Source: a virus. Taken from it: a DNA stretch of 64,000 nucleotides. This document shows, piece by piece, positions 545-15,770 of this stretch. How positions within the stretch are numbered: the stretch's first letter is position 1; each line of letters opens with the position of its first letter. The DNA is taken from the IMG/VR virus record IMGVR_UViG_3300035698_008372, positions 76,004 through 140,003 of that record; one strand, given 5' to 3'. The notes below the pieces were generated by a model, which did not search any database, was not told where the DNA came from, and worked only from the letters and a program-made list of their open reading frames with translations. The position numbers were made by a program, and so were the translations under genes.

Positions 545-1642
545 ATGGTAACTTTTAAATTATCGGATAAATTTATAGATGGGTTCAAGCGCAAGCGGGC
601 ACCCTTCGGTTTCAATGGGTTAGGGGCCCTAGTATATATGAGGACATATTCCAGAATAAAGGAAGATGGTTCAAATGAACAATGGTGGGAAACAGTACAG
701 CGTGTAGTTGAAGGTACATATAGCATGCAGAAAAACTGGATAGACGAACAAGGTCTTGGATGGAACCCATGGCAGGCACAGAGGTCTGCACAGGAAATGT
801 ATGAGCGTATTTTTGAAATGAAATTTCTACCACCCGGACGGGGTCTGTGGGCAATGGGCACTGCTATCACTGAAGAAAAGGGATTGTATGCGGCATTGAA
901 TAACTGTGCATTCGTATCCACCGAAAATTTGAAAGACGATTTGGCCAAACCATTCACGTTTCTAATGGACGCTTCCATGTTGGGAGTCGGTGTTGGATTT
1001 GATACAAAGGGGGCAGGGCAACTTATTGTCAAAGGCCCTAATGTGGATAGACCACCAGAAAAGTTTGTAATCCCAGATTCCCGTGAGGGTTGGGTTGATG
1101 CCATGAAATTATTGATCGAGAGCTATTTTCTTGGTACTTCACCTATGGATTATGATTATGATACAATCAGGCCAGAGGGAGCACCAATAAAGGGGTTCGG
1201 CGGCACTTCAAGTGGGTACAAACCACTTAAAGCTGCTATGGATGAAATATCCAAAACACTAGATAAAAATGTTGGGGCACCTATTACAATAACCACAATA
1301 GTTGATATTATGAATCATATTGGTAAATGTGTGGTGGCCGGAAATGTCAGACGCTGTTTACCAAATCACTATGAAGTTCAAACGGAAAATGGTTTCAAAT
1401 GTATGAGTGAACTTACATCGGGAGATATGATAAATACAGCAGGAGGTTTGCGAGAGGTTAATGATGTCATAGATAGCGGAAAACAGAAAGTGTTGAAAAT
1501 TAAAACGATGAACAATACTGAATATGAAGCTACTGAAAAACATACATTATTGGTATATAATCAGAAACTAGGCTTTAAGTGGAAAATGGTAAAGGATATT
1601 GATTCGGAGTTAGATTTTTTAGTTAAACCCAAAAATAAATAA
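545..1642 (+). CDS. nrdJ: Class II ribonucleotide reductase NrdJ, fragment 1, ending in split-intein N half (1355-1639)
   Basis: RTYSR, FLPPGRGLWAMG, NNCAF, GVGVGFD, CVVAGNVRR, then CLPNHYEV (block A) and ATEKH (block B TxxH). Confidence 0.92.
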   Translation: MVTFKLSDKFIDGFKRKRAPFGFNGLGALVYMRTYSRIKEDGSNEQWWETVQRVVEGTYSMQKNWIDEQGLGWNPWQAQRSAQEMYERIFEMKFLPPGRGLWAMGTAITEEKGLYAALNNCAFVSTENLKDDLAKPFTFLMDASMLGVGVGFDTKGAGQLIVKGPNVDRPPEKFVIPDSREGWVDAMKLLIESYFLGTSPMDYDYDTIRPEGAPIKGFGGTSSGYKPLKAAMDEISKTLDKNVGAPITITTIVDIMNHIGKCVVAGNVRRCLPNHYEVQTENGFKCMSELTSGDMINTAGGLREVNDVIDSGKQKVLKIKTMNNTEYEATEKHTLLVYNQKLGFKWKMVKDIDSELDFLVKPKNK

Positions 1643-1708
1643 AATATGAAGCGGTTAAGAATAATGGATACCGATTTAAATTAGATGTATATTAATAGGA
1701 GAATGATT

Positions 1709-2455
1709 ATGTATGGGATAGAAGATTTCAATTTGGAAGATTTCAATTTAATTTCGATTATGGAAATAGTCGATGAAAATAAATATGTTCAAACGATGGA
1801 CATAGAGGTTGCGGACAAGCATCATTTCTTTGTACGAAATCCTGAATACTCGGATGAATGTATTGTATCACACAATACAGCCGAAATTGTATTTGGTGAT
1901 CCTGAGAATCAGGAATATTTGGACTTAAAGGATTACGACGTGAATCCATATAGGGAAGAATTTGGGTGGACATCGAACAATTCTATATTTGCCGAATTGG
2001 GCATGGATTATACTGATGCTTGTAAACGTGTTGTGAAAAATGGTGAACCGGGATTTGCATGGCTTGAGAATATGCAGGGTTACTCACGTATGAAGAGCGG
2101 TAAAGACTACAAAGATAGACGTGTAAAAGGTGGAAATCCATGTGTTGTTGGTGATTCAATTATTACTACTGATAGAGGTAGACTTAGAATGGATGAATTA
2201 GTTGAACGTGTAAATTCAGGTGAAACCATAAAAGTTATGTCTTTTAATGAACAAACATTAACAACTGAATTTAATGTTATTACAAAAGCGTGGATGAGTA
2301 AAAAGGATGCTACTGTATTGACATTGGAAATTGAGGAAAATGACCAAATGTTTAAATTGACATGTACCCCCGACCATAAAATATATACAACTAATCGAGG
2401 ATATGTTGAGGCTAATGATTTAACTGGGGAGGATGATATAAAAATAATTACATAA
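1709..2455 (+). CDS. nrdJ: NrdJ fragment 2: intein-1 C half (to 1876), RNR extein, intein-2 N half (2141-2452)
   Basis: MDIEVADKHHFF...IVSHN|TAEIVFG; SNNS, GEPG; GGNP|CVVGDS...CTPDHKIYT...NDLTGEDDI; RBS AGGAG before ATG 1709. Confidence 0.9.
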   Translation: MYGIEDFNLEDFNLISIMEIVDENKYVQTMDIEVADKHHFFVRNPEYSDECIVSHNTAEIVFGDPENQEYLDLKDYDVNPYREEFGWTSNNSIFAELGMDYTDACKRVVKNGEPGFAWLENMQGYSRMKSGKDYKDRRVKGGNPCVVGDSIITTDRGRLRMDELVERVNSGETIKVMSFNEQTLTTEFNVITKAWMSKKDATVLTLEIEENDQMFKLTCTPDHKIYTTNRGYVEANDLTGEDDIKIIT

Positions 2456-2523
2456 TTCGTTTGTATATGGTATTTATTTTTGATATTTATAATAAAGAAA
2501 CACTCTATATAAAGGAATGAACT

Positions 2524-3579
2524 GTGAAAACATATTGTGAAAAAAAGAACGGAAAAATTAAATTTGGAGATACTAATCATATTAGTTACGTGGGTCACTA
2601 TACAAACAATAACAATAAAACATATTATTTGCGTAGCAAGATTGAATTCGTGGTGGCTAGATGATTAGATATAAAAAATCTTAAATTTTTATATGAATGC
2701 AAAATATATATAATAAATTCAAAAAATTATAAACCCGATTTTTTCCACACTGTAAATGATAAAATCAGAACTATTATAGAAGTAAAACCAGATAAACAAA
2801 CGGCTCTGGAATATTATTCTAAATATAACGAGTATTTTAAGAATATAGGAATTCGGTATGTAGTTTTATGAGAAAAACACATACATCAATTAATACGTAA
2901 AAATAATTTACAAGATGAGGTACTAAATTGAATAGACTATAGCATCACGAATTATAAAGTTCCCGATATGAGAGGGAAAAATAATCCTAGATATGGAATG
3001 AAAACATCAGCAACTACTAAAAAGAAGATAGGTGATAAGACCAGAGAAAGATGTAAGGATAATGAGTATATTGATAAATTGAGTACCTCTATTTCTAAGT
3101 TCTATAATACGGACATGGGACTAAAACGAAGAAATGAAATTTCAGAGTTAAGAAAACGTGAAAACGTAGAATTCTGGAAACGGAAAAATCATGATGACCC
3201 ACTTACTACTGCTATATGTAAAATATGTGGTGATTTATTTAGATATAGAGGTATTAGTGAAAGTGGTCGTGTAACTTGTAGAAAAAATGGATGTACTACA
3301 AAATATAATAATAGTATTGGAATTCCTCGAAAACCATTATCTAAAAAATCAAGTATTAGCTCATATAAAACAAGACTGTTAAACGGTGGTAATAAAATGA
3401 AATTAACTGAAAACTATAAAGATTGAAACGAGAAAATTAACATGTTAAAGAAAACGTATAATATTCCAATGACGTTTGGTATGAATGAAAATACCATTGT
3501 CAAATATTTTGGAAATATAAACACCTATATAAAGGAGATAAAAAAATATGGGAAAACTAATAAGAACGATTTTACATAA
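2524..3579 (+). CDS. Free-standing homing endonuclease (PD-(D/E)XK, NUMOD3-like and Zn-ribbon parts) with 4 in-frame TGA
   Basis: Frame is open from GTG 2524 to TAA 3579 if TGA (2662, 2869, 2929, 3424) is sense; RSKIEFVVAR*LD, YKPDFF, IIEVK, GKNNPRYG, CKIC. Confidence 0.8.
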
Positions 3580-3660
3580 AACTGTGGAGGATGTATTCGA
3601 TTTAACCGTCGATGCTGTCCATAATTTTATAGCCAATGGTATATTGGTACATAACTGCCT
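3548..3660 (+). CDS. nrdJ: NrdJ fragment 3, exon 1: intein-2 C half plus extein Cys-Leu
   Basis: MGKLIRTILHKTVEDVFDLTVDAVHNFIANGILVHN|C-L; canonical blocks F/G; too short for the ORF track. Confidence 0.88.
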
Positions 3661-3833
3661 TAACTACTAAGTCTCGGGGCAGTATAAATTTCTCCTGATT
3701 GACTTGGAAGGTGAGTATACACCGACAGGGCGCAAGGGTAAAGCCAGCGTGAGAGACTGAGCGGAGAAACTTCAAAATGAAGATGCGACAGTCCACCTTA
3801 TGAATCGAAACTTCTGATACGATTTGTAAACAG
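3661..3833 (+). ncRNA. Group I self-splicing intron (173 nt, no ORF) in nrdJ
   Basis: 5' exon ends in U (TGCCT) and intron ends in G (AACAG); removal gives TGC CTC GAA CAA = C-L-E-Q-S-L-E-S-Y-E-L-C-C-L; P7-like GAGACTG and GATGCGACAGTCC elements. Confidence 0.85.
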
Positions 3834-4764
3834 CGAACAAAGTTTAGAATCCTATGAATTGTGTTGTCTAGTTGAAACATTTCCAGACAATCATACGAGC
3901 AAAGAAGATTATTTGCGAACATTGAAATATGCTTATCTTTATGCAAAGACAGTGACACTTGGAAAAACTCATTGGCCAGACACAAATAGGGTTATGCTGA
4001 GAAATCGTAGAATTGGTACATCGGTATCTGGTATTGCCCAATTCATTACCAATCGAGGTCTGGGTGTACTCAGGGATTGGTTGGAAAGTGGGTACGATGA
4101 GATTAAGAAATGGGATGAGATGTATTCAGATTGGTTATGTATTCAGCCCAGTATAAAAATTACAAGTGTGAAACCTAGTGGGACAGTATCACTACTGGCC
4201 GGATCAACTCCAGGATTACATTATCCAGAGAGTAGGTTCTACATCAGGCGTGTACGACTGGCAAAAAGTAGTAAACTGATTACACCACTTGAAAACGCTG
4301 GATACAAAATAGAACCGGCTTATGGTTCTGAAGAAAGCACAGTTGTGGTGGAAATTCCCATTGATGAGGGTGATGGAATTAGGACAAAGAAGGACTTAAC
4401 GATGTGGGAACAATTGGCCCTTGCGGCGTTTATGCAACGGCATTGGGCTGACAATGCTGTTAGTGCCACGATCACGTTTGATCCGGAAACCGAATCGGAT
4501 CAACTCCCATTCGCTTTGAACTATTTTCAGTATCAATTAAAAGGCATTTCATTTCTACCTAGAGTGGAAAAGGGGGCCTATAGACAAATGCCGTATGAGG
4601 AAATCACTGAAAGTGAATATGATAATATGAAAACTAATCTAAAATATTTGAGTTTAATTCACATTGAAGGGGAAATGGCAAACCCAGAAAAATATTGTGG
4701 GAATGATACGTGTGAAATTGATGCCGAGTGGGCACAAGTTGAAGATGAACAGGATGAAAAATAA
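3834..4764 (+). CDS. nrdJ: NrdJ fragment 3, exon 2 (C-terminal catalytic part)
   Basis: EQSLESYELCCLVE, NRRIG, TSVKPSGTVS, YRQMPYEEI, C-terminal CGNDTC. Confidence 0.92.
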
Positions 4765-5767: not shown

Positions 5768-5785
5768 TTGAAAATAAATCGTGTC

Positions 5786-5812
5786 TTTGGGAAATAAAAC
5801 ACTATTTATATA
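5786..5812 (+). promoter_or_regulatory. Putative phage middle/late promoter TTTGGG(C/A)A...TAT(T/A)TATA
   Basis: Same bipartite motif recurs at 10994, 33623 and 53690, each just upstream of a gene start. Confidence 0.55.
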
Positions 5813-5813
5813 C

Positions 5814-5886
5814 GCGGTTGAGGTGTAAGGGGATTTGCATGTCGGCTTTCCAGCCGGAGGAGTTGGTTCAAAACCTTCCAACCGCT
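5814..5886 (+). tRNA. Atypical or degenerate tRNA-Gly-like gene (6-nt anticodon loop TTTCCA, mismatched T stem)
   Basis: Acceptor GCGGTTG/CAACCGC with discriminator T; anticodon stem TCGGC/GCCGG; GGTTCAAAACC; 84-nt periodicity with the next two. Confidence 0.7.
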
Positions 5887-5897
5887 CTATTACAAAT

Positions 5898-5970
5898 GCG
5901 ATTGAGGTGTTCAAGGGGAGCACGTCGGTATTCCATATCGAAGGAGTGGGTTCGAATCCTGCCGATCGCT
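5898..5970 (+). tRNA. tRNA-Gly(TCC), atypical (A8, A32-U38)
   Basis: Acceptor GCGATTG/CGATCGC, U73, anticodon arm TCGGT-ATTCCAT-ATCGA, T loop TTCGAAT. Confidence 0.85.
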
Positions 5971-5981
5971 CTATTAAAAAT

Positions 5982-6054
5982 GCGATTGAAGTGTAACAGG
6001 TAAGCACGCCGACATACCATGTCGGAAGAGTGGGTTCGAGTCCTACTGATCGCT
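5982..6054 (+). tRNA. tRNA-Gly(ACC), atypical (A8, A32-U38, rare A34 anticodon)
   Basis: Acceptor GCGATTG/TGATCGC, U73, anticodon arm CCGAC-ATACCAT-GTCGG, T loop TTCGAGT. Confidence 0.85.
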
Positions 6055-6081
6055 CTATTAATGCAAGGAAAAAAATGTTAT

Positions 6082-7239
6082 ATGAACTTCTCAAGTAAAT
6101 TTTTCGATATCAAACCATTTGATATAGAAGAAGAAAAACAAAATCTAATCAATAATTTGGACTTTTTACATTCTATGACAGTGGAAGAACAAACCCTGTA
6201 TAAGAAATGGCAGGAGTTCAATAAGAACGAACATAAGATCAGGGGGAAAGCCCACCTGTTTGATGTGTTTGAAAAAAGGTTATGGGCACCAACCGATATC
6301 TATGATGAGGATTTAACCATTAAGGAAATTAATGCGTTGGAGCCAGTTGTAGAATATGCAGGAAGCGATGAAGCTGCTGATTGGTCATTGTATAGGATGT
6401 TAATTCACACAATGGATTGGTCTGCGAACCCCGGTAGAAATATGAAATTCTATGTAAAGGATGCTGTCACTCGTAAGGTGTTGGGTCTAATATCAATGGG
6501 TTCAGATGTTACCAGTATCAAGGTCAGAGATGATTATATTGGTTGGAAAAAAGAAGATAAATTTGTAAATCACAAGTTGAATAATACGGCTATAGCCAGC
6601 ACAATTGTGTCGGTTCAACCATTGGGTTATAACATGCTTGGTGGAAAATTGATAGCCGCGTTGGCAACAGTGTCAACAATTAGGGACAAGTGGGAAAAGG
6701 AATATGGTGATGTTCTAGCTGGGGTTACAACCACTTCATTATATGGCATCCATTCACAATATAACGGAATTCCACATTGGAAAACGATGGGTGAATCTGC
6801 TGGCAAGATTAGGATCAAGCCAGATGATAGTGAATATTTGAAATGGAATAAGTGGCTCAAAGAGAATTATCCAGATGAGTTTGAAAAAGCCATTACTGGA
6901 ACGGGTCCCAAACAGAATGTATTAAGCAAGGTATTCAGCCATTTGAAAATTAGAGGTTATGAGCATGGATTTCATAGAGGTGTCTATTTTGCGTCAATCT
7001 ATGATAATACAGTGCCATTCTTAAAGGGTGAAATTGAACAATCTGAGCTCAAAATGAAACTGAAATATGAACAGGATTATGAATATATCGACAGGTGGTG
7101 GAAAAAGAAAGCCATAAGACGATATCAGAACATGATTGCACAGGATAGGATTAAACCAGAGAAATTATTCTATGGTGATATCGTGGGTGTATCTTGGGAA
7201 GAATGCCAAGAAATGTATTTAAAAGAAGTGGGGAGATAA
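6082..7239 (+). CDS. DUF4338 / DruA-like protein (putative GNAT-fold DNA-modifying enzyme)
   Basis: PGRNMKF, RDDYIGW, QPLGYNMLGGKLIA, TTTSLYG..SQYN, GES.G; start moved downstream of the tRNA. Confidence 0.75.
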   Translation: MNFSSKFFDIKPFDIEEEKQNLINNLDFLHSMTVEEQTLYKKWQEFNKNEHKIRGKAHLFDVFEKRLWAPTDIYDEDLTIKEINALEPVVEYAGSDEAADWSLYRMLIHTMDWSANPGRNMKFYVKDAVTRKVLGLISMGSDVTSIKVRDDYIGWKKEDKFVNHKLNNTAIASTIVSVQPLGYNMLGGKLIAALATVSTIRDKWEKEYGDVLAGVTTTSLYGIHSQYNGIPHWKTMGESAGKIRIKPDDSEYLKWNKWLKENYPDEFEKAITGTGPKQNVLSKVFSHLKIRGYEHGFHRGVYFASIYDNTVPFLKGEIEQSELKMKLKYEQDYEYIDRWWKKKAIRRYQNMIAQDRIKPEKLFYGDIVGVSWEECQEMYLKEVGR

Positions 7240-7412
7240 TGAGTAAAACACTAGTTGAGAAGATCGAAGAATTGGGTACTGATTGGAGCAAGGTGAATAC
7301 CGCTTTGCATCACTTATGGTCAAAAAATGTCGGAACTGATAATTATGACAAAGAAGAATGGAAATTGTTAGAAAAATATATATATAAAATTATATTGAAA
7401 GACAGGGGATAA
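7239..7412 (+). CDS. Small hypothetical protein
   Basis: ATG overlaps the upstream stop (TAATG). Confidence 0.55.
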   Translation: MSKTLVEKIEELGTDWSKVNTALHHLWSKNVGTDNYDKEEWKLLEKYIYKIILKDRG

Positions 7413-7416
7413 GCTT

Positions 7417-9177
7417 ATTTATAAGTCAATTTATTTCGAAGCGGAAAAACAGAAGATTCATTTGTGGGATGATGACCGCGGCTATTTCACAATACCATAT
7501 AGACGTTATGGGTATATAAAAGATAGGGGCGGCACATATACTTCATTATATGGGGACAGGCTTAAGAAAATCCACAAGTGGGGCAAAGATTCCACTGGAT
7601 TATTTGAGAGTGATGTACACCCTGAAACAAGAACATTAATTGATCTGTACACCAATGACGATGAACCATCAAAAGGTAACAAAACGATTATTATTGATAT
7701 TGAAGTCGAGGTCACAGATGGATTCCCAACTGCTACTTTGGCCGAGAATAAGGTTACGGCTATATCAATTTACGATTTTACGGATAAGAAATATTATGGT
7801 TTGGTATTGGAAAATGGCAAGGGTATTATCAAGCCATCCACAACTCCAGAGCTTGACATTGAAGTGTTTGATATGGAAGTTGATTTGTTGAATAGATTCA
7901 TGCAGATATACCTACGCATAAAACCAACTATTATTACTGGTTGGAATGTGGATAGATTTGATGTAACATACCTATACAATAGAATGGCCGATCAGCTGGA
8001 TGAAGATGTAGCCAATTGCTTGTCTCCAATCGGTGTGGTACATTGGAGTGATTTCAGGGGTAGCTACAGAATCGCTGGGGTTGCAACAATGGATTACTTA
8101 CAGTTGTATAAGAAATTTACATTTACGCAACAGGCTTCATACAGATTGGATGCGATTGCTGATTTCGAATTGGGTGAACGCAAAATTGAATATGATGGTA
8201 CACTAAACGAATTATATGAAAATGACATTGAAAAATTTGTCCAATACAACATCCATGATGTTCGACTAATTGAGATGTTGGACAAGAAATTGAATTTTAT
8301 AGAAATCGCTCGTGGTATTTGTCACTTGGGGCATGTTCCGTATGAAGATATTTACTATGACAGTAGATACCTAGAGGCTGCTATTCTTGTTTATCTGAAA
8401 AAATTGAACATCATCGCTCCGAATAAGCCCGAGCGTGAGGGTTGGAAGGATGAAATTGGCTTTGAGGGTGCTCACGTTCAAAAGCCCAAGAAGGGTCGTC
8501 ATAATTGGGTATATGATTTGGATTTAACATCAATGTATCCAAGCATCATTATGTCGTTGAACATTTCTCCAGAGACAAAAATAGGTAAAATAGATGGGTG
8601 GGATTCCAATAAATTTGTGAAAAAAACCCCAAAAACCTATACTGTCAAATATGGTACAACCGCACTCCAATCCATGGATCAGGATGAACTACAGGTATTT
8701 TTTGATACCAATCATGTGTCGGTATCGGCCAATGGGATATTGTACAAAACTGATAGGGATGGCCTAATCGCGTCACTCCTGAAAAAGTGGTTCGACGAAC
8801 GTGTTGAATTCAGAAAATTGGCTAAGAAGTTTGCCGACGCGGGTGATAACGAGAAATATGATTATTTCAATAGACGACAACATATCCAGAAGATTCTCCT
8901 TAACTCACTTTTTGGGGCACTCGGTTTGCAGGGTTGGAGATTCCATGACGTAGACAACGCCCTTGCAGTTACATCGACGGGGGTAGAATTAATTCGATTT
9001 TCCAAAACCATTGCAAACCATTATTACAATACTGAGCTTGGTAAAGAAATTGAACTTGAAATGGAAGATGGGTCTATCAGAAAATTATATGAAAATTGGC
9101 CAATCCATGTAAAAAGGGGTGGTAAAAAAGTTCAAATTTTAGCCAAAAATCTCAAAATAAATGATGATATTCTCTAA
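7417..9177 (+). CDS. polB: Family B DNA polymerase, N-terminal fragment (exonuclease + motifs A/B); probable ATT start
   Basis: DIEV, TGWNVDRFD, YNIHDV, DLTSMYPSII, KILLNSLFG; frame is open from ATT 7417 behind AGGGGA. Confidence 0.92.
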   Translation: MYKSIYFEAEKQKIHLWDDDRGYFTIPYRRYGYIKDRGGTYTSLYGDRLKKIHKWGKDSTGLFESDVHPETRTLIDLYTNDDEPSKGNKTIIIDIEVEVTDGFPTATLAENKVTAISIYDFTDKKYYGLVLENGKGIIKPSTTPELDIEVFDMEVDLLNRFMQIYLRIKPTIITGWNVDRFDVTYLYNRMADQLDEDVANCLSPIGVVHWSDFRGSYRIAGVATMDYLQLYKKFTFTQQASYRLDAIADFELGERKIEYDGTLNELYENDIEKFVQYNIHDVRLIEMLDKKLNFIEIARGICHLGHVPYEDIYYDSRYLEAAILVYLKKLNIIAPNKPEREGWKDEIGFEGAHVQKPKKGRHNWVYDLDLTSMYPSIIMSLNISPETKIGKIDGWDSNKFVKKTPKTYTVKYGTTALQSMDQDELQVFFDTNHVSVSANGILYKTDRDGLIASLLKKWFDERVEFRKLAKKFADAGDNEKYDYFNRRQHIQKILLNSLFGALGLQGWRFHDVDNALAVTSTGVELIRFSKTIANHYYNTELGKEIELEMEDGSIRKLYENWPIHVKRGGKKVQILAKNLKINDDIL

Positions 9178-9239
9178 GTTTATACTATTTATATACAGAC
9201 ACAATGTATCAATGTATAAAATATAAATTGGAGAGTAAG

Positions 9240-10079
9240 ATGAAAAAGGGGTCAGCGAGAACATTACAATATTGATTGGATAAAGGGTATAAAGGGGAAG
9301 AAGCAGAAAAAATGCGTATGAGCAGAATTCCAGGTACTATAGAATATTTTACTATATTTAAGGGGCTCCCATTGAATGAGGCCGAAATTGCGAAAGAAAA
9401 TTATAACAAAAGGTCCGTTCCGACATTGGAAAATATGATACGCAAGTATGGGGAAACTGAAGGTGAAATTAGGTGGGGTGCATATCGTGAAAAACAGGCA
9501 AAATCCAATACATTTGAATATAAGCGTGATAAGTATGGTTGGACATTGGAACAATTCGATGCTTATAACAAATCAAGGGGATTGTCTGGTAAAGACAATG
9601 GCAATTATGGGTCGAGCTATTATGAAGCTTGGGTTAAAAAGTATGGAAAAATAAAGGCCGATGAAATGAATAATGCTTTAGGTGAATTGAAAGCCAAAGG
9701 GGGGAAATCTCAAAAAGGTGTACCCAAATCATTTGTGGCTAGAAAAAATATGAGTATAGCTGCAAAGAAAAGGATAATGGATCAGGGTACTTACATTTCA
9801 TATAATCCAAATTCAATTCCGATAATTGAAAAATATGGAAAAGAAAATGGATATAAATTTCAACATGCTGAAAATGGCGGCGAATATTTGGTTAGGGAAG
9901 TTTACTATTGGGTAGATGGGTATGATCATGAAAATAATGTGGTGGTTGAATATGATGAAAAATACCATGAAATGCAAACGGAAAAAGATAAAATTAGGCA
10001 ACAACATATAATGGATGTGTTGGGGTGCAAATTTATAAGAATTAAAGAATCTGGAGAAATTAAGATTTATGAAAATTAA
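9240..10079 (+). CDS. Free-standing endonuclease (Vsr/DUF559-like C-terminus) between PolB fragments; 1 in-frame TGA
   Basis: GGAG RBS, then MKKGSARTLQY*LDKGY (TGA 9273); KYG repeats; YWVDGYD...VVEYDEKYH...D.IRQ..I...LGCKFIRI. Confidence 0.8.
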
Positions 10080-10990
10080 AAATATAAGGGAATCAAAAGG
10101 TGTCGATGTGGATCATGTTATCTACATCGACACGTAGTGCGGATTCACTATTTATTTCGTCAACCGCGATGGTGAGCAAACGATATGGAAACAAGAAATT
10201 CAGTGATGTCATGCTGTCACAGTACATCTTGACAATAGCTGGTGACACCCAAAAATTCATAAATAACTCGTATGACTATTTTGCCAAGAAATTCTGTAAT
10301 CTTCCCGGTGCACACCGGTTTGAGATTAAACAGGAATTGATTGCAAAGTCAGCTGTATTTGTCAATGCTAAGAAAAATTATGGGTTGCGTGTTATCAATG
10401 ACAATGGTGTGAAAGTGGATAAAAATGTGTACAAAGGCTTGGCCGTAGTTCGCAGTGATTTCCCACAATCATACAGAAAATTGTTAGGTGAGGTGCTAGG
10501 TGATGTTCTAGCGGATGTTCCAAAAGATAAGATCGACGATCGTATTATTGAATACAAAAACAACATGAGATACTTGAATGTCGAAGATATCGCCAAACCA
10601 ACTGGGGTTAAGAATATCAAAAAATATTTGGTTCCACCTGGAGCGGGTGGGGGATTTTCTACTTGGAAGTCTCGTTGTCCTATCCATGTCAAATCATCTA
10701 TCATATACAATGATTTGATTAAGCATTTTGACAAACAAAAGAAGTACGCATTGATAGGGGCCGGCGACAAGGTCAAATGGGTGTACTTAAAGAAAAATAA
10801 TTTAGGATTAGAAAGTGTGGCTTATACAGGTCACGAAGACCCAAAGGAAATTATGGATTTCATATATAATTTTGTGGATAGGGATAAGATGTACGATAGT
10901 ATATTTTTGAACAAAATCACATCAATATATTCTGCCATGGACTGGTCGTTGCCCATAGATAAAAAGTTCTCGATGGACAGATTTTTTTAA
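10069..10990 (+). CDS. polB: Family B DNA polymerase, C-terminal fragment, interrupted by 7 nt (10135-10141) within motif C
   Basis: MKIKNIRESKGVDVDHVIYIDT-[TAGTGCG]-DSLFIS; KKNYG, KGLAVVRSD, PIHVK; C-terminal SMDRFF. Confidence 0.88.
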
Positions 10991-10993
10991 TCG

Positions 10994-11023
10994 TTTGGGC
11001 ACATTAATGTATATGTATATATA
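10994..11023 (+). promoter_or_regulatory. Putative phage middle/late promoter
   Basis: TTTGGGCA...TATATGTATATATA upstream of the clamp gene. Confidence 0.55.
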
Positions 11024-11041
11024 AAGAAACAAGGAGTTACA

Positions 11042-11761
11042 ATGGAAAAAGGAAAATTAGTACGGTTTATTCAAAAATATCATTTGAATGGCAACGTACA
11101 ATCGGTTTCAATGAATAGTGACGGTGAGACGTTAAAGGCGGAGTTTGTAACTTCGGACAGAGGGTTGCTCGGAACTATTAAAATGAAGAATTGGGGATTT
11201 GAAAAATCCAAAATTGGTATCTTGGATACTGAGAAGTTCTTAAAATTATTGGCAGTATTGGATAATGATGTTAAATTGTCATTGTTAAAAGCTGGCGATA
11301 CGGCAATCACATTAAAGGTCGCGGACAATAGTTCTACAGTCAATCTGATGTTATCAGACTTGTCGGTAATTCCAGCTGTACCGCCTTTGAAGTATGTGCC
11401 GCCAATGAATCTCAAGTTGAACTTGGATTCAAATTTCATTAAGAAGTTTATCGCTGGTAAGGGTGCTCTATCCGATGTGGATAATTTCACAGTGGTCACA
11501 GATAACGATTCTGTTAATTTGGTGATCGGTTATGCATCAATTAATACGGACAGGGTTATTGTTCCAGTTGATACTGAAGTATTCGAAAAGATTGACAAGG
11601 TATCATTCAACGCAAATATCTTCAAAGATATCCTGCAATGTAACCGTGAATGTAAAAGTGGAGTAATGGAAATCAGCTCAGAGGGTCTTTCAAAACTGAC
11701 CTTTAATGTTGATGACTATGAAGTTGTGTATTTCTTAGCCGCATCTGAAAACGTAGGATAA
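11042..11761 (+). CDS. Sliding clamp (T4 gp45/PCNA-like)
   Basis: 239 aa, two-domain beta-rich pattern, ends ISSEGLSKLTF..YFLA; lies between PolB and the clamp loader. Confidence 0.75.
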   Translation: MEKGKLVRFIQKYHLNGNVQSVSMNSDGETLKAEFVTSDRGLLGTIKMKNWGFEKSKIGILDTEKFLKLLAVLDNDVKLSLLKAGDTAITLKVADNSSTVNLMLSDLSVIPAVPPLKYVPPMNLKLNLDSNFIKKFIAGKGALSDVDNFTVVTDNDSVNLVIGYASINTDRVIVPVDTEVFEKIDKVSFNANIFKDILQCNRECKSGVMEISSEGLSKLTFNVDDYEVVYFLAASENVG

Positions 11762-11767
11762 ACAACA

Positions 11768-12694
11768 ATGGTTAGAAAAACATCTCATTCGATATGGTGT
11801 GAATTATATCGACCAACATCAATGGAAACATTCGTAGGAAATGATCATCTCAAGGATAAAATTGATATGTACATTGAAACCAATGATCCGCCCCACCTGT
11901 TATTTCATGGTAAGGCGGGCACTGGTAAAACTACATTGGCCAAGGTCATACATAATAGTATAGACTGTGACCACTTGTACATCAATGCTTCAGACAAAGG
12001 TGGTGTGGATTACATTAGGACTGATATCATTCCATTTGCCAGTAGTGTTGGATTTAGGGAGTTGAAATTGGTTATCCTCGATGAGGCCGACTTTTTGACT
12101 CCACAATTCCAAGCATCACTACGCAACGCTATGGAAACGTACGCGATGAATACTCGGTTCATATTGACTTGCAATTACCCCGAACGGATAATCGAACCAA
12201 TACAGAGCCGGTGCCAAATGTTTGAAGTTTATCCTCCAAGCAAAAAGGAAATCGCCGTACATGTCAGTGCAATATTGGCAAAAGAGGGTGTGAACCATAC
12301 CGCGAGTGACATCGGATTGATTGTCAATAGTAAATATCCAGACATTAGAAGTATTATCAATACATTGCAGAAACAATCAATTAATGGTGAGCTGAGATTG
12401 GACAAGCGTTCGGTTGTGGAAAGTGACTATAAATTGAAGATATTGGATGTACTGAAAAAGCAGGATAAGAAAAACTCATTTGCTAGTATTAGACAAATGG
12501 TGGCGGACAATTCAATCAGAGATTTCGCTGAGATTTATTCAATGTTATTTTCTGAGGTGGATGATTACGCTAAGGGTCATATCGCTCAAACGATATTGAT
12601 TCTGGCCAGATACCAATTGAGTGATTCTCAAAGTGTCGATAAAGAAATAAATTTTATGGCATGCGTAATAGAATTGTTAGATTGTATTAAGTAA
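11768..12694 (+). CDS. Clamp loader AAA+ subunit (RFC/gp44-like)
   Basis: W.E.YRP, GKAGTGKTT, INASD, ILDEAD, IQSRC, PDIRSIIN. Confidence 0.93.
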   Translation: MVRKTSHSIWCELYRPTSMETFVGNDHLKDKIDMYIETNDPPHLLFHGKAGTGKTTLAKVIHNSIDCDHLYINASDKGGVDYIRTDIIPFASSVGFRELKLVILDEADFLTPQFQASLRNAMETYAMNTRFILTCNYPERIIEPIQSRCQMFEVYPPSKKEIAVHVSAILAKEGVNHTASDIGLIVNSKYPDIRSIINTLQKQSINGELRLDKRSVVESDYKLKILDVLKKQDKKNSFASIRQMVADNSIRDFAEIYSMLFSEVDDYAKGHIAQTILILARYQLSDSQSVDKEINFMACVIELLDCIK

Positions 12695-13498
12695 ATGGAA
12701 GAACAATTTGTAGACACGTCGAGGGTAGAACTTAGGATTATTACTACCGCTATAGCAAAAAGGATGATTGTAAAATACCATTACAGTCACGCATGGCCCG
12801 CATCAACTCAAGCTCCATTAGGGGTATTCTATAAGACAGGCAAGAAACATAAGTTTCTTGATGAGGATGATGAAAAATTGATTGGTTGTATTGTCTATGG
12901 CAATCCAGTTGGTCGTAGAGCGGCCGCATCTATAGTGGATAGTGATGAGATTAACGCTCATGAAAGTGTTTATGAATTGACAAGGTTATTCATCCATGAT
13001 GGATACGGCAAGAATATTGAGAGTTATGTTATAGGTCAATCGTTCAAATGGTTGAAAGAGAATAGGCCTAAAATCAAAATGTTGATCAGTTATGCCGACC
13101 CAGCACAGGGTCATGTTGGAGGAATCTATAAGGCCACCAACTGGGGATACCAAAGTGCGGATGATATGAAGTTGATGTTCAATTACCCAATTTCATTAAC
13201 AAACGATCCTTATGATTGGATTCATAGCCGTACTGTATTTTCAAGGTACGGAGTGACTCCATATCCAACGGATGATGCAGTAGCCAAAATGAAGAAAGCG
13301 GTGGGCCAGACATTCTGGATGAAACGAGAATGTGTGAAGCATCGCTATATTCAATTCTTAGTGGACAAGAGGGAAAAACGGAAATTGATAAAATTGCTGA
13401 AGCACCCATTTCGAGACTATCCTACAACGGCCGACGACGATAGTGAAATTATTGAAGTGATAGTTGACGGGAGTGGAAAATTTGGGAAGTTCATGTAA
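12695..13498 (+). CDS. Mom-like adenine-modifying GNAT protein, paralog 1
   Basis: KYHYSH, ELTRLFIHDGYGKNIES, ISYADPAQGHVGGIYKATNW. Confidence 0.82.
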   Translation: MEEQFVDTSRVELRIITTAIAKRMIVKYHYSHAWPASTQAPLGVFYKTGKKHKFLDEDDEKLIGCIVYGNPVGRRAAASIVDSDEINAHESVYELTRLFIHDGYGKNIESYVIGQSFKWLKENRPKIKMLISYADPAQGHVGGIYKATNWGYQSADDMKLMFNYPISLTNDPYDWIHSRTVFSRYGVTPYPTDDAVAKMKKAVGQTFWMKRECVKHRYIQFLVDKREKRKLIKLLKHPFRDYPTTADDDSEIIEVIVDGSGKFGKFM

Positions 13499-14265
13499 TG
13501 GAGAAATATACAGACATATCTAGAGTAAGTGTTCGACCAATAGATCGGACTACTGCTAAAGGTATCATTGAAAAATACCATTATAGTCATTTGATTCCAG
13601 CTACTTTACAGCTGTCATTGGGTGTATTTTATGAATCTGATGACACAGGTAAATTTTTTGATGACAATGAAAAATTGATAGGGTGCATAATGTATGGGCA
13701 TCCATCTGGCAGAATGGTAGTGGATTCCATAACCGAAGGTGATTTGCTCGATCGGGAAAATATAATGGAACTTTTGAGGTTGTTTATCCATGATGGTTAT
13801 GGCAAGAATATTGAGAGTTATGTAATCGGACAATCGTTCAAATGGCTCAAAATCAACAGACCAAAAGTAAAGGTGTTAATCAGCTTTTCCGACCCAGCAG
13901 AAGGTCATTTGGGTATCATATACCAATCGACCAACTGGTTGTTTCAAATGATTCCATCATCTGGTAAGTGGCAATTTTCAATGGAAAAAAACCCGTATCA
14001 TTGGGTACACCCCAGAACAATATTTGGAAGATATGGATTTTGTGGTGTGGAAGATATGAAAAAGTCATTTGATAAGAACTTCTATGCCAAGCGCCTGACA
14101 AACAAATTTCGATATTTGTACATACTGACCAATAAATCGGAAGCTAGGAAAATCAAGAAAAATCTAATCCACGAACTACTGCCATACCCAAAGTCAATTG
14201 ATTATATGGAAGAAATAGTGGAAGTCGAAGTGAGCGGAAATTCGAAGCTCGGAAAGTTCATATAA
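13498..14265 (+). CDS. Mom-like adenine-modifying GNAT protein, paralog 2
   Basis: KYHYSH, ELLRLFIHDGYGKNIES, ISFSDPAEGHLGIIYQSTNW. Confidence 0.82.
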   Translation: MEKYTDISRVSVRPIDRTTAKGIIEKYHYSHLIPATLQLSLGVFYESDDTGKFFDDNEKLIGCIMYGHPSGRMVVDSITEGDLLDRENIMELLRLFIHDGYGKNIESYVIGQSFKWLKINRPKVKVLISFSDPAEGHLGIIYQSTNWLFQMIPSSGKWQFSMEKNPYHWVHPRTIFGRYGFCGVEDMKKSFDKNFYAKRLTNKFRYLYILTNKSEARKIKKNLIHELLPYPKSIDYMEEIVEVEVSGNSKLGKFI

Positions 14266-15032
14266 TGGAAAAATATACGGATACTTCTAGGGTCACTATA
14301 AGGCCGATAGACAAAAAGACTGGTATTAATATGATTAAAAAATACCATTACACTCACAAAGCACCTGGTACTACTCAGGATGTGTTGGGTGTGTTTTATA
14401 AGGGTGAAGAAGCCAACAAGTTTTTCGATGATGATGAAGTATTGATCGGGTGCATGTTATATGGTCATCCAGTTGGTAGGTGGACAATAAAATCCATTAT
14501 CGAAGATGAAAATATCAAATCCTATAATGTGTATGAATTACTGAGGTTATTTGTACACGATGGGTATGGCAAGAATATCGAAAGCTTTGTCATAGGTCAA
14601 TCATTTAAGTGGCTGAAAGAGAACCGACCAGAGGTGAAAATATTGGTGAGTTATGCCGATCCTGAAGCCGGTCATGTGGGCATCATATACCAATCAACTA
14701 ACTGGATGTTCCAGATTCCAGAACCAGGTGGAGCAATGATGACTTCACTAACCAAAGACCCGTATGTATGGGTTCACCCAAGGTCAATGCACGCAAAGTT
14801 TGGTGCTTGTGGGGTGGATGGTCTCAAAGAGGCATTGGACAAACCATTCTACATGAAAAAATCACCTCCAAAATTTAGATATGTATATCTATTGACGGAC
14901 AAAAGGGAGAGCAAGATATTGAAATCGAAATTCGTATATCAACAATCTCCATATCCAAAAGAGCACGATTATGTTGAAAAAGTTATTGAAATGGTGCCCA
15001 ATGAAGAGAAAAAATTTAGTAAATTTATTTAA
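14265..15032 (+). CDS. Mom-like adenine-modifying GNAT protein, paralog 3
   Basis: KYHYTH, ELLRLFVHDGYGKNIES, VSYADPEAGHVGIIYQSTNW. Confidence 0.82.
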   Translation: MEKYTDTSRVTIRPIDKKTGINMIKKYHYTHKAPGTTQDVLGVFYKGEEANKFFDDDEVLIGCMLYGHPVGRWTIKSIIEDENIKSYNVYELLRLFVHDGYGKNIESFVIGQSFKWLKENRPEVKILVSYADPEAGHVGIIYQSTNWMFQIPEPGGAMMTSLTKDPYVWVHPRSMHAKFGACGVDGLKEALDKPFYMKKSPPKFRYVYLLTDKRESKILKSKFVYQQSPYPKEHDYVEKVIEMVPNEEKKFSKFI

Positions 15033-15064: not shown

Positions 15065-15328
15065 ATGAGTCAATTAAATCCAAGAAAACCATTACCAAAA
15101 TCACCACCAAAACTAGACCTAGCGAAGGCAGAAACCATCGTATGTGAACAAGAGGGGTGTGGTAATATGTTATTTCTTCAGTCATTCGTGATGAAAAGAG
15201 TATCGGCCATTTTGAGCCCAAGCGGTAAAGAAGAATTACTACAAATTCCAGTTATGAGTTGCGGAGCATGTGGTGGGGTCAATAAGGAATTCATGGCCGC
15301 ATTCGGAGAACCCGACAGCGATGGTTAA
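15065..15328 (+). CDS. Small Zn-ribbon protein
   Basis: CEQEGC...CGAC. Confidence 0.65.
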   Translation: MSQLNPRKPLPKSPPKLDLAKAETIVCEQEGCGNMLFLQSFVMKRVSAILSPSGKEELLQIPVMSCGACGGVNKEFMAAFGEPDSDG

Positions 15329-15770
15329 TACCAAGATCAAAAAGGCCAAAACCTTATTTGAACATGTAAACCATGTCAATGAAAAACAAACCAAAAATTA
15401 CTGGGAAACCTTATCTGAAGCCGATAAGAAAAATTGGTCCAATTATATGATCCACAGGTTTTTGTCGATGGAACCAGCATTTATTGAGATAGTGAATGAG
15501 GTTCAAAAATATAATCTCACTCCGGATATGGTGTATAAATTCTACATAGATGTTCTGCCAAAGGGTAAGCGGTGGTTGAAATATGTAAAAAAAACGGCCA
15601 AACAGAAATTCGAGAGTGGATTGGTGGAATTGTTTGCAAAGCATTTTGAGGCTAGTATTCTTGAATCGACTGAATACATTGAATTATTGAGCCGATCTGA
15701 AATTGAAGAGATTTTGGACAAATATGGTCTGGATGCAAAAACAAAACGAAAATATCTGAAAGGAATTTAG
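15321..15770 (+). CDS. Clamp loader small subunit (T4 gp62-like)
   Basis: NYMIHRFLSM...Y.FY...LPKGKRWLKY pattern; replication context. Confidence 0.7.
   Translation: MVNTKIKKAKTLFEHVNHVNEKQTKNYWETLSEADKKNWSNYMIHRFLSMEPAFIEIVNEVQKYNLTPDMVYKFYIDVLPKGKRWLKYVKKTAKQKFESGLVELFAKHFEASILESTEYIELLSRSEIEEILDKYGLDAKTKRKYLKGI

Follow-up and report, generated by a model that had tools for sequence, protein, structure and literature searches.

Glycine tRNA genes linked to Mom and DruA/DUF4338 genes in phages: candidate glycine carriers for DNA hypermodification

Introduction

Why should a phage keep three tRNA genes that all specify glycine, and keep them directly in front of a gene of the DruA/DUF4338 family? 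The question is raised by a stretch of DNA of 64,000 nucleotides from a marine T4-like phage (in the following the window; positions 76,004 to 140,003 of the IMG/VR record IMGVR_UViG_3300035698_008372, G+C 37.6%), which is the right-hand end of a contig of 140,003 bp and also carries three paralogous genes of the Mom family. The Mom protein of phage Mu transfers glycine from Gly-tRNAGly to the N6 of adenine in double-stranded DNA, and the product is then converted by rearrangement into the carbamoylmethyl form (Silva et al., Nat Commun 2026, PMC13219725; structure 8bv8). Staphylococcus aureus, in turn, possesses three non-proteogenic tRNAGly, which are charged normally, bind EF-Tu weakly, carry TGC or TGT in the T loop and feed the Fem transferases (PMC7826273). 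A preliminary description of the window, made from its sequence, had pointed to both the Gly-tRNA donor of Mom-like enzymes and the dedicated staphylococcal tRNAs, and both are indeed published.

With moderate confidence, we favour the explanation that the tRNA trio supplies the glycyl donor for the DNA-modification enzymes of this phage. Neither Mom chemistry nor a tRNAGly dedicated to non-ribosomal use is new in itself; relative to the literature that we found, novelty would lie in a carrier tRNA that a virus encodes and that is coupled to DNA-modifying GNATs, and in a link of DUF4338/DruA to Mom chemistry. Use of charged tRNA by Mom was established only in 2023-2026 and has been described as scavenging of host tRNA. 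Beyond the papers on Mom and one sentence, in work from the Aravind laboratory, calling DUF4338 a GNAT domain in passing (PMC10853773), we found nothing in the literature on phage tRNAs linked to Mom or DUF4338, and the Mu Mom paper makes no mention of phage tRNA genes or gene neighbourhoods (PMC13219725).

Three tRNA-Gly genes in front of a DruA-like gene

The following four features open the locus. R1 is a covariance model built for this analysis, with which all three tRNA copies score 63-77 bits; the gathering score of the Rfam tRNA model (RF00005) is 29 bits.

5814 to 5887, + strand: tRNA-Gly-like gene, copy 1 (R1 63.2 bits; Rfam tRNA 31.9 bits, placed at 5814-5886; missed by ARAGORN)
5898 to 5971, + strand: tRNA-Gly gene, copy 2, anticodon UCC (found by ARAGORN; R1 77.4 bits; Rfam 23.8 bits, below the gathering score, placed at 5900-5967)
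5982 to 6055, + strand: tRNA-Gly gene, copy 3, anticodon ACC (found by ARAGORN; R1 77.5 bits; Rfam 47.1 bits, placed at 5982-6054)
6082 to 7239, + strand: gene of a DruA/DUF4338-family protein with a GNAT fold, 385 aa (PF14236, E 2.4e-22; ATG at 6082, AAGGA 12 nt upstream)

The arrangement agrees with the preliminary description, which had pointed to three tRNAs of glycine identity at an exact 84-nt period (starts 5814, 5898 and 5982), with a DUF4338 gene immediately behind them, as the only tRNAs of the 64 kb; ARAGORN found no others across the whole contig, a record of about 71% completeness (CheckV). The promoter-like motif that had been placed in front of the tRNAs did not withstand analysis, as a sigma-70 scan was empty at 5768-5813 and the number of hits equalled that expected from shuffled sequence.

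The identity set of glycyl-tRNA synthetase (GlyRS), for which we used the S. aureus list (G1-C72, C2-G71, G3-C70, U73, C35 and C36; PMC7826273), is complete in all three copies. All three have A instead of U at position 8, and in none of them is CCA encoded; a gene for a CCA-adding enzyme (PF01743) is absent from the 140-kb record. Copy 1 has an anticodon loop of six nucleotides (UUUCCA) and the T-stem mismatches U50-U64 and U51-U63. Its ortholog in a close relative (L001:9815-9887) shows the same 6-nt loop and the same mismatches, while its acceptor and anticodon stems have changed in a compensatory manner, which argues that copy 1 is under selection and not decaying. Copy 2 carries UCC in a 7-nt loop, A8 together with U14, and G-U pairs at 50-64 and 51-63, and copy 3 carries ACC in a 7-nt loop, its D and T loops being canonical. 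The marks of the staphylococcal non-proteogenic type, TGC or TGT for TTC in the T loop and an altered D loop, were not found, since all three copies retain TTC and GG. Judged from the sequence, copy 1 looks unfit for the ribosome, as the only one of the three, and copies 2 and 3 look translation-competent. The U-U mismatches and 6-nt loop of copy 1, and the G-U pairs of copy 2 at the same T-stem positions, may be indirect signs of weak EF-Tu binding. The earlier view of the trio as non-canonical and translation-incompetent can therefore be kept for copy 1 (6-nt loop, U-U pairs in the T stem) and is not supported for copies 2 and 3, with their normal loops, or by A8 as a marker, to which we return below.

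tRNA-Gly-like elements at the end of Mom genes

A scan of viral sequences for the A8-type tRNA-Gly pattern returned 71 loci, 24 of them beside DruA-like genes, five at the 3' end of a Mom gene and about 42 in tRNA arrays. In the five Mom-linked cases, the order is ParB/methylase, Mom, tRNA-Gly, terS, terL. Two Mom proteins from these cases served as queries for a census of 160 viral loci, collected by Mom homology alone (39-100% identity). The covariance model detected a single tRNA-Gly-like element at the Mom C-terminus in all 80 loci of a first set and in 65 of the 77 loci of a second set that left room for it, that is in about 145 of 157 (about 92%); the elements begin 1-10 nt past the 3' end of Mom or overlap its end. 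ARAGORN reported 55 tRNAs in the 160 loci, of which 53 are Gly or Gly-like with abnormal loops, one is Met and one is Trp; 51 of the 55 abut the Mom 3' end, on either strand, about one third being antisense to Mom. In a specificity control with 78 T4-like Mom loci (1.08 Mb), the model matched only true tRNA arrays, at five loci.

The Mom-adjacent elements have the covariation of a folded tRNA (98.7% of cells paired, 18 of 21 pairs changed on both sides), although the alignment was fitted to the model and these counts therefore lean towards structure. Independently, a rule-based script yielded 93 distinct elements at 123 loci. U73 is present in 88 of these 93, the anticodon is UCC in 77 and ACC in 14, and the GlyRS identity set (the same six elements as above) is retained almost everywhere. 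The anticodon loop is shortened to six nucleotides in 38 elements and to five in another five, while 23 of the 50 seven-nucleotide loops have no U33; the GG of the D loop is absent in 39, and the T loop starts with TTC in only 39 and with TGC, as in the staphylococcal carrier tRNAs, in 14. The linked tRNAs thus retain the features predicted to be read by GlyRS and often lose those that the ribosome and EF-Tu would be expected to read.

At four of the five Mom-linked loci of the A8 scan (L174, L187, L205 and L221), the Mom frame reads through the tRNA-Gly without a stop and gains 25-40 tRNA-encoded residues, and at other loci a tRNA on the opposite strand overlaps the Mom 3' end. A cultured example is provided by Psychrobacter phage vB_PmaS_Y8A (OQ059336.1, about 7786-7851; L476:2662-2727), in which an unannotated tRNA-Gly-like element of 66 nt without D arm is placed directly after a Mom homolog and before terS.

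Such read-through, and the reduction of some elements as in the Y8A copy, would be understandable if the elements were uncharged tRNA-like structures acting in cis, either as RNase P processing or mRNA-stabilising signals or as remnants of integration sites. We regard this as extremely improbable: the GlyRS identity set is kept almost throughout, about one third of the elements lie antisense to Mom, and the window has three full cloverleaves in tandem upstream, and not downstream, of its gene. An integration site in particular was considered for the Mom-adjacent elements and rejected, because they are located between ParB/Mom and terS/terL and do not adjoin an integrase gene.

tRNA-Gly genes beside DruA-like genes

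A second census started from the DruA-like protein of the window and comprised 80 viral loci, whose DruA-like proteins are 51-90% identical to it. At 19 of these, a tRNA-Gly (UCC, sometimes ACC) lies 100-145 nt upstream of the DruA-like gene; a tRNA of any other identity was found directly upstream at none of the 80. DruA-adjacent tRNAs with ACC were seen in L043, L196 and L223. The closest relatives (L001-L003) have two tRNA copies, the ortholog of copy 1 included. Across 15 DruA-linked tRNAs, 98.4% of the cloverleaf is paired and 13 pairs are changed on both sides. In a quick tree of DruA, the tRNA-linked genes fall into three clades, one with the window and L003, one with L012 and one of 13 genes, all of them tRNA-bearing, and the tRNA-DruA module is found in two different genomic contexts. 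A further census (query P0143) added no tRNA-linked DruA clade, and a distant second DruA query (P0219) gave zero viral loci.

The association extends to Mom. Contigs with the tRNA-DruA module carry two or three Mom genes elsewhere, and in a fourth DruA clade (L069-L078) two Mom genes stand directly upstream of the DruA-like gene, in the slot that the tRNAs occupy in the window. Three pairwise links, of Mom with tRNAGly, of DruA-like genes with tRNAGly and of DruA-like genes with Mom, occur in different phage lineages. The co-occurrence of tRNA-Gly with DUF4338 and Mom genes, a check proposed in the preliminary description, accordingly proved to be strong, with about 92% of the 157 Mom loci and with Gly as the sole identity upstream of DruA-like genes.

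Among cultured phages, the DUF4338 gene of the window has its closest relatives in the T4-like Pelagibacter myophages Mosig and HTVC008M (33-34% identity), in which a DruA-like gene is present and Mom is absent. HTVC008M contains an unannotated tRNA-Gly(ACC)-like gene (KC465899.1, 91140-91211; L162:13944-14015) with U8, a D loop without GG and AGCG instead of TTCG in the T loop; it is the sole match of the model in this genome, and the DruA-like gene lies 3.9 kb upstream of it. In several relatives of the window phage, weak matches of 15-20 bits that are confined to the acceptor stem and T arm (GCUG...GGUUCGA...CAGCUC) precede the DruA-like gene by about 1.5 kb (L012:8283-8340, L042:8461-8518, L044:2879-2936, L055:8366-8434 and L056:6178-6235) and may be mini tRNA-like structures.

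In the second context, a gene for a PNKP-type phosphatase (PF25109) is situated just upstream of the module (L012:8823-9332 and L035:8615-9127). Cases are on record in which phage tRNAs evade anticodon nucleases by altered loops. Together with the variable anticodon loops, the phosphatase gene would suit a role of the tRNAs in counter-defence, as decoys or nuclease-resistant replacements against anticodon nucleases or toxins acetylating Gly-tRNA, the odd loops being the means of escape. tRNAs with 6-nt loops, without U33 or without the T-loop motif would not restore translation, however, and neither the restriction to Gly nor the abutment on about 92% of the genes in a Mom clade would be explained, so that we consider a counter-defence role very improbable.

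The Mom paralogs of the window

About 6.6 kb downstream of the tRNAs, as stated in the preliminary description, three Mom-like genes follow one another within an operon for the clamp loader.

11768 to 12694, + strand: gp44-type large subunit of the clamp loader (Pfam AAA, DNA_pol3_delta2 and Gp44_lid), after which the Mom genes are inserted
12695 to 13498, + strand: Mom-family paralog 1, 267 aa (PF25680, E 3.9e-43)
13498 to 14265, + strand: Mom-family paralog 2, 255 aa (PF25680, E 1.9e-42; 53% identity to paralog 1)
14265 to 15032, + strand: Mom-family paralog 3, 255 aa (PF25680, E 4.7e-41; 50% identity to paralog 1)
15270 to 15770, + strand: gp62-like small subunit of the clamp loader (phrog_225, clamp loader, E 1.2e-20), closing the operon that the Mom genes interrupt

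The scores of the three proteins (147.9, 145.7 and 141.1 bits) far exceed the PF25680 cut-off of 27.1 bits, and a profile built from them and 20 relatives matches Mu Mom (8bv8) with an E value of 2e-17. Mu Mom cannot do without R111 and S124, and D149, R151, H58, Y59 and Y159 are important as well (PMC13219725). The equivalents of H58, Y59, R111, S124, D149 and Y159 (H29, Y30, R97, S110, D135 and Y145 in paralog 1) are invariant in the three paralogs and the 20 relatives. R151 is not conserved; E or Q is aligned with it and an invariant His follows three residues on, in a stretch where the alignment is uncertain. The paralogs are 50-53% identical and diverge most at residues 150-215, which align with the helix-turn-helix-like insertion of Mu Mom. 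This pattern fits differing DNA specificities and does not show them.

Beyond the PYPK that ends the Mom domain, the paralogs have an extension of about 25 aa (13420-13498, 14190-14265 and 14957-15032), terminating in K-F/L-G/S-K-F-I/M, and the C-terminal fragment of the DNA polymerase (10960-10990) terminates in KKFSMDRFF. Among the open reading frames (ORFs) of at least 80 aa in the 140-kb record, this tail-end pattern is restricted to the three Mom ORFs. The tail may bind the sliding clamp, which would fit the location of the genes within the clamp-loader operon. Outside the window, a 565-aa ORF (G000:C1:41677-43374; L395:334-2031) upstream of an NAD-dependent DNA ligase gene combines DUF7487 with a stretch faintly resembling a restriction endonuclease and a weak Mom-like domain (Pfam scan 23 bits, genome search 26.5 bits, both just short of the cut-off of 27.1 bits), and may represent a fourth Mom-related enzyme.

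The genes of the locus stand in the order tRNA trio, DruA/DUF4338 gene, split family-B polymerase, an ORF of 239 aa, gp44-type clamp loader, three Mom genes and gp62-like gene; megablast returned no match to a cultured phage for 5300-15100. Of the statement that the Mom genes follow clamp and clamp-loader genes, the second half holds. The ORF at the expected site of the clamp (11042-11761, 239 aa) matched neither Pfam nor PHROG and showed no similarity to the HTVC008M clamp in BLASTP, so that only position and size fit a clamp. The polymerase is encoded in two ORFs (7462-9177 and 10100-10990), between which lies a free-standing endonuclease-like ORF (9276-10079; weak DUF559 match, phrog_22677), probably a homing-endonuclease gene by which the polymerase is split. 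Upstream of the locus, at 545-4764, ribonucleotide reductase is apparently fragmented as well, the ORF at 3859-4764 corresponding to the C-terminal part of phrog_367 only.

Fold and possible substrates of the DruA-like protein

The protein encoded behind the tRNAs matches PF14236 (now named DruA) with 79.9 bits, at a cut-off of 27 bits, over profile positions 63-297 of 297. It has 2,568 homologs, mostly viral or metagenomic, and nothing significant among the sequences of the Protein Data Bank (PDB) by either phmmer or profile search. An AlphaFold2 model with a mean confidence (pLDDT) of 95.4 was compared with solved structures. All top matches of Foldseek against the PDB are GNATs, with Mu Mom at ranks 3-4, and in VIA-align Mu Mom (8bv8_A) is the best solved match (Z 9.6, root-mean-square deviation 4.4 Å, 185 residues aligned), ordinary GNATs reaching Z of at most 8.6 over about 150 residues; matches with Z 8-9.6 span residues 81-330 of the protein. 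As the lead of Mom amounts to only about one Z unit, 'Mom-like GNAT' is a fair term and 'Mom homolog' is not proven. In the model comparison, the relationship appears at the level of the fold only: the comparison of DUF4338 with Mom and GNATs that the preliminary description had suggested turned out positive by structure and negative by profile. Several phage proteins termed 'endonuclease-like' and proteins of giant viruses (Faunusvirus with E 2e-19, Yasminevirus and Dasosvirus) also match the model in BFVD.

In other proteins the PF14236 domain occurs in fusions with ParB_N, UDG, DUF3102 and LAGLIDADG, partners that suggest DNA as the substrate. The gene of the window is situated in the phage replication module, and the partners DruB, DruC, DruD and DruE of type I Druantia are not among its neighbours (the tRNAs, a dUTPase gene and the split polymerase gene), no PADLOC scan for DruB-E having been made.

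The tight adjacency of tRNA and DruA-like gene could alternatively mean that this GNAT acts on the tRNA-Gly itself or on its glycyl moiety, thereby making a modified donor for Mom or regulating the pool. GNATs with aminoacyl-tRNA as a substrate are known, TacT being the comparison drawn in the Mom paper (PMC13219725), and by our own reading a motif resembling a coenzyme A (CoA)-binding one, Q-x-x-G...G-G-K, follows strand 4 of the DruA-like protein. The domain fusions and the membership in Druantia, however, point to DNA, the structural match to Mom is better and longer than any other, and most DruA-like genes have no tRNA nearby. We therefore think it distinctly unlikely that the tRNA is the target of the enzyme.

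Glycine carriers or translation tRNAs

We propose that the window contains a phage DNA-hypermodification gene set built on glycyl-tRNA. Once transcribed, the tRNA trio would depend on the host for maturation (RNase P and the CCA-adding enzyme) and for charging by GlyRS, for which all three copies have the full identity set. The charged tRNAs would then supply the glycyl donor, partly or wholly, to the modification enzymes, with copy 1 probably acting as a pure carrier unusable by the ribosome and copies 2 and 3 possibly serving both translation and modification. The Mom paralogs would, like Mu Mom, be DNA aminoacyltransferases dependent on Gly-tRNAGly, glycylating the N6 of adenine in double-stranded phage DNA, the adduct giving N6-carbamoylmethyl-adenine. 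The DruA/DUF4338 protein is most likely a further aminoacyl-tRNA-dependent modifier of nucleic acids using the same donors. Of this scheme, the identities of the genes, the fold, the conserved catalytic residues of Mom, the identity elements of the tRNAs and the comparative linkage are observed or published, and charging, use as donor, the substrate and product of each enzyme and the escape from EF-Tu and the ribosome are inferred. Given the three pairwise links, the consumption of Gly-tRNAGly by Mom and the retained GlyRS features, the simplest reading is that the linked tRNAs are glycine carriers for enzymes of the Mom superfamily, and the window combines all the components.

The chief competitor holds that these are ordinary tRNAs for the translation of frequent GGA/GGG and GGU codons, their adjacency to the DruA-like gene being inherited synteny of no functional meaning. 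tRNA-Gly(UCC) is a common phage tRNA, and T4 has one. In this genome the commonest Gly codons are GGT (43%) and GGA (27%), matching the anticodons of copies 2 and 3, so that these two could be dual-purpose or purely translational; codon usage as such fails to discriminate between the hypotheses. Translation tRNAs would, however, hardly include a copy with a 6-nt loop and T-stem mismatches that is nevertheless conserved with compensatory changes, and ACC is an odd anticodon in a bacterial system. Moreover, no identity other than Gly was encountered in tRNAs abutting DruA-like or Mom genes, a second, canonical tRNA-Gly with U8 is present in L044 at 1.4 kb from the DruA-adjacent one, and the module recurs in two genomic contexts. 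On balance we judge purely translational tRNAs to be unlikely, and the case for carriers within the window is strongest for copy 1.

The removal of A8 as a sign of non-translational function is the main correction to the preliminary description. A8 was tried as such a signature and rejected, because the same A8 tRNA-Gly(UCC) type is common in the large tRNA arrays of other phages. In the array-borne lineage (L163-L230, about 42 loci), A8 is paired with U14 as a swapped 8-14 pair and CCA is encoded.

Several further observations have to be set against glycine carriers. The arrays with A8 tRNA-Gly(UCC) comprise 20-30 and up to about 36 tRNAs, with canonical anticodon loops and without Mom or DruA nearby, and besides their 7-nt anticodon loops copies 2 and 3 of the window retain the D-loop GG and the T-loop TTCGA; further tRNAs may exist beyond the contig, since the record is incomplete. 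The trio lies 6.6 kb away from the Mom genes of the window, and none of the 78 T4-like Mom loci outside the window's own lineage has a tRNA-Gly adjacent to Mom. No tRNA is adjacent to the DruA-like gene at 61 of 80 loci in the first census and at 76 of 80 in the P0143 census. Both Mom queries were tRNA-linked and the 160 loci are their relatives, so that the high frequency reflects long-term retention in one large phage group and not 145 independent events. A dedicated tRNA is not required for Mom activity as such, since Mu Mom accepts all three tRNAGly isoacceptors of Escherichia coli (PMC13219725). Concerning DruA, profile comparison detected no sequence-level relationship with Mom (hhalign probabilities of 1-3%), and the catalytic residues of Mom are not evident in the protein, whose acyl donor could consequently be a CoA thioester.

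What the glycine carriers would mean

If the tRNAs are indeed glycine carriers, they would represent the second known case, after the staphylococcal cell-wall tRNAs, of tRNA genes diverted from the ribosome to a transferase, and the first that is viral and serves DNA chemistry. An explanation would be at hand for many phage tRNA-like genes that look 'odd' or lack annotation and are overlooked by standard tRNA finders, DNA-glycylating phages could be recognised in metagenomes by a sequence marker, and orthogonal tRNA-enzyme pairs could become tools for site-specific DNA modification. A first concrete and testable biochemical hypothesis would be available for DUF4338/DruA, a protein of a defence system, and the Y8A element offers a cultured system for testing the carrier idea. 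More tentatively, and with less than even confidence, we suggest a wider generalisation: that phages widely encode hitherto undescribed, non-translating tRNA-Gly-like glycine carriers for DNA hypermodification by the Mom superfamily, that DUF4338/DruA, including the DruA of Druantia I, is a second family of Gly-tRNA-dependent modifiers of nucleic acids, and that Druantia I is a self/non-self system based on modification.

Comparison with known systems

Compared with Mu Mom, the paralogs of the window share the Pfam family, six residue equivalents and likely the chemistry and its purpose, protection from restriction, while the DruA-like protein has the same fold and finds in Mom its best match among solved structures. 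Mu, however, has one mom gene, no tRNA gene and an enzyme that takes any host isoacceptor, whereas the window has three diverged paralogs in a clamp-loader operon, with polymerase-like C-terminal tails and without conserved R151, and the phage adds another GNAT family as well as tRNA-Gly genes of its own. With the DruA of type I Druantia, the protein of the window has the PF14236 domain and the GNAT core in common, but it is encoded by a stand-alone phage gene linked to tRNA-Gly and Mom; neither version has a known activity. Like the T4-type tRNA clusters that supplement codons, the window encodes a tRNA-Gly(UCC), and related genes of the A8 type occur in large arrays. Here, by contrast, all three tRNAs are Gly, one with a 6-nt loop and one with ACC, and they are coupled to a GNAT gene and not to other tRNAs.

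A further analogy is that with the staphylococcal tRNAs NP1-3, which serve FmhB, FemA and FemB. The logic would be the same, in that GlyRS identity is kept, the parts facing the ribosome and EF-Tu have diverged and an aminoacyl-transferase of the GNAT fold is fed; many of the Mom-adjacent phage elements even share TGC for TTC in the T loop and the loss of GG from the D loop. The tRNAs of the window deviate in other ways (A8, the 6-nt loop of copy 1, ACC in copy 3 and weak T-stem pairs). Here, DNA would take the place of the peptidoglycan precursor as acceptor, and the tRNA genes belong to a virus.

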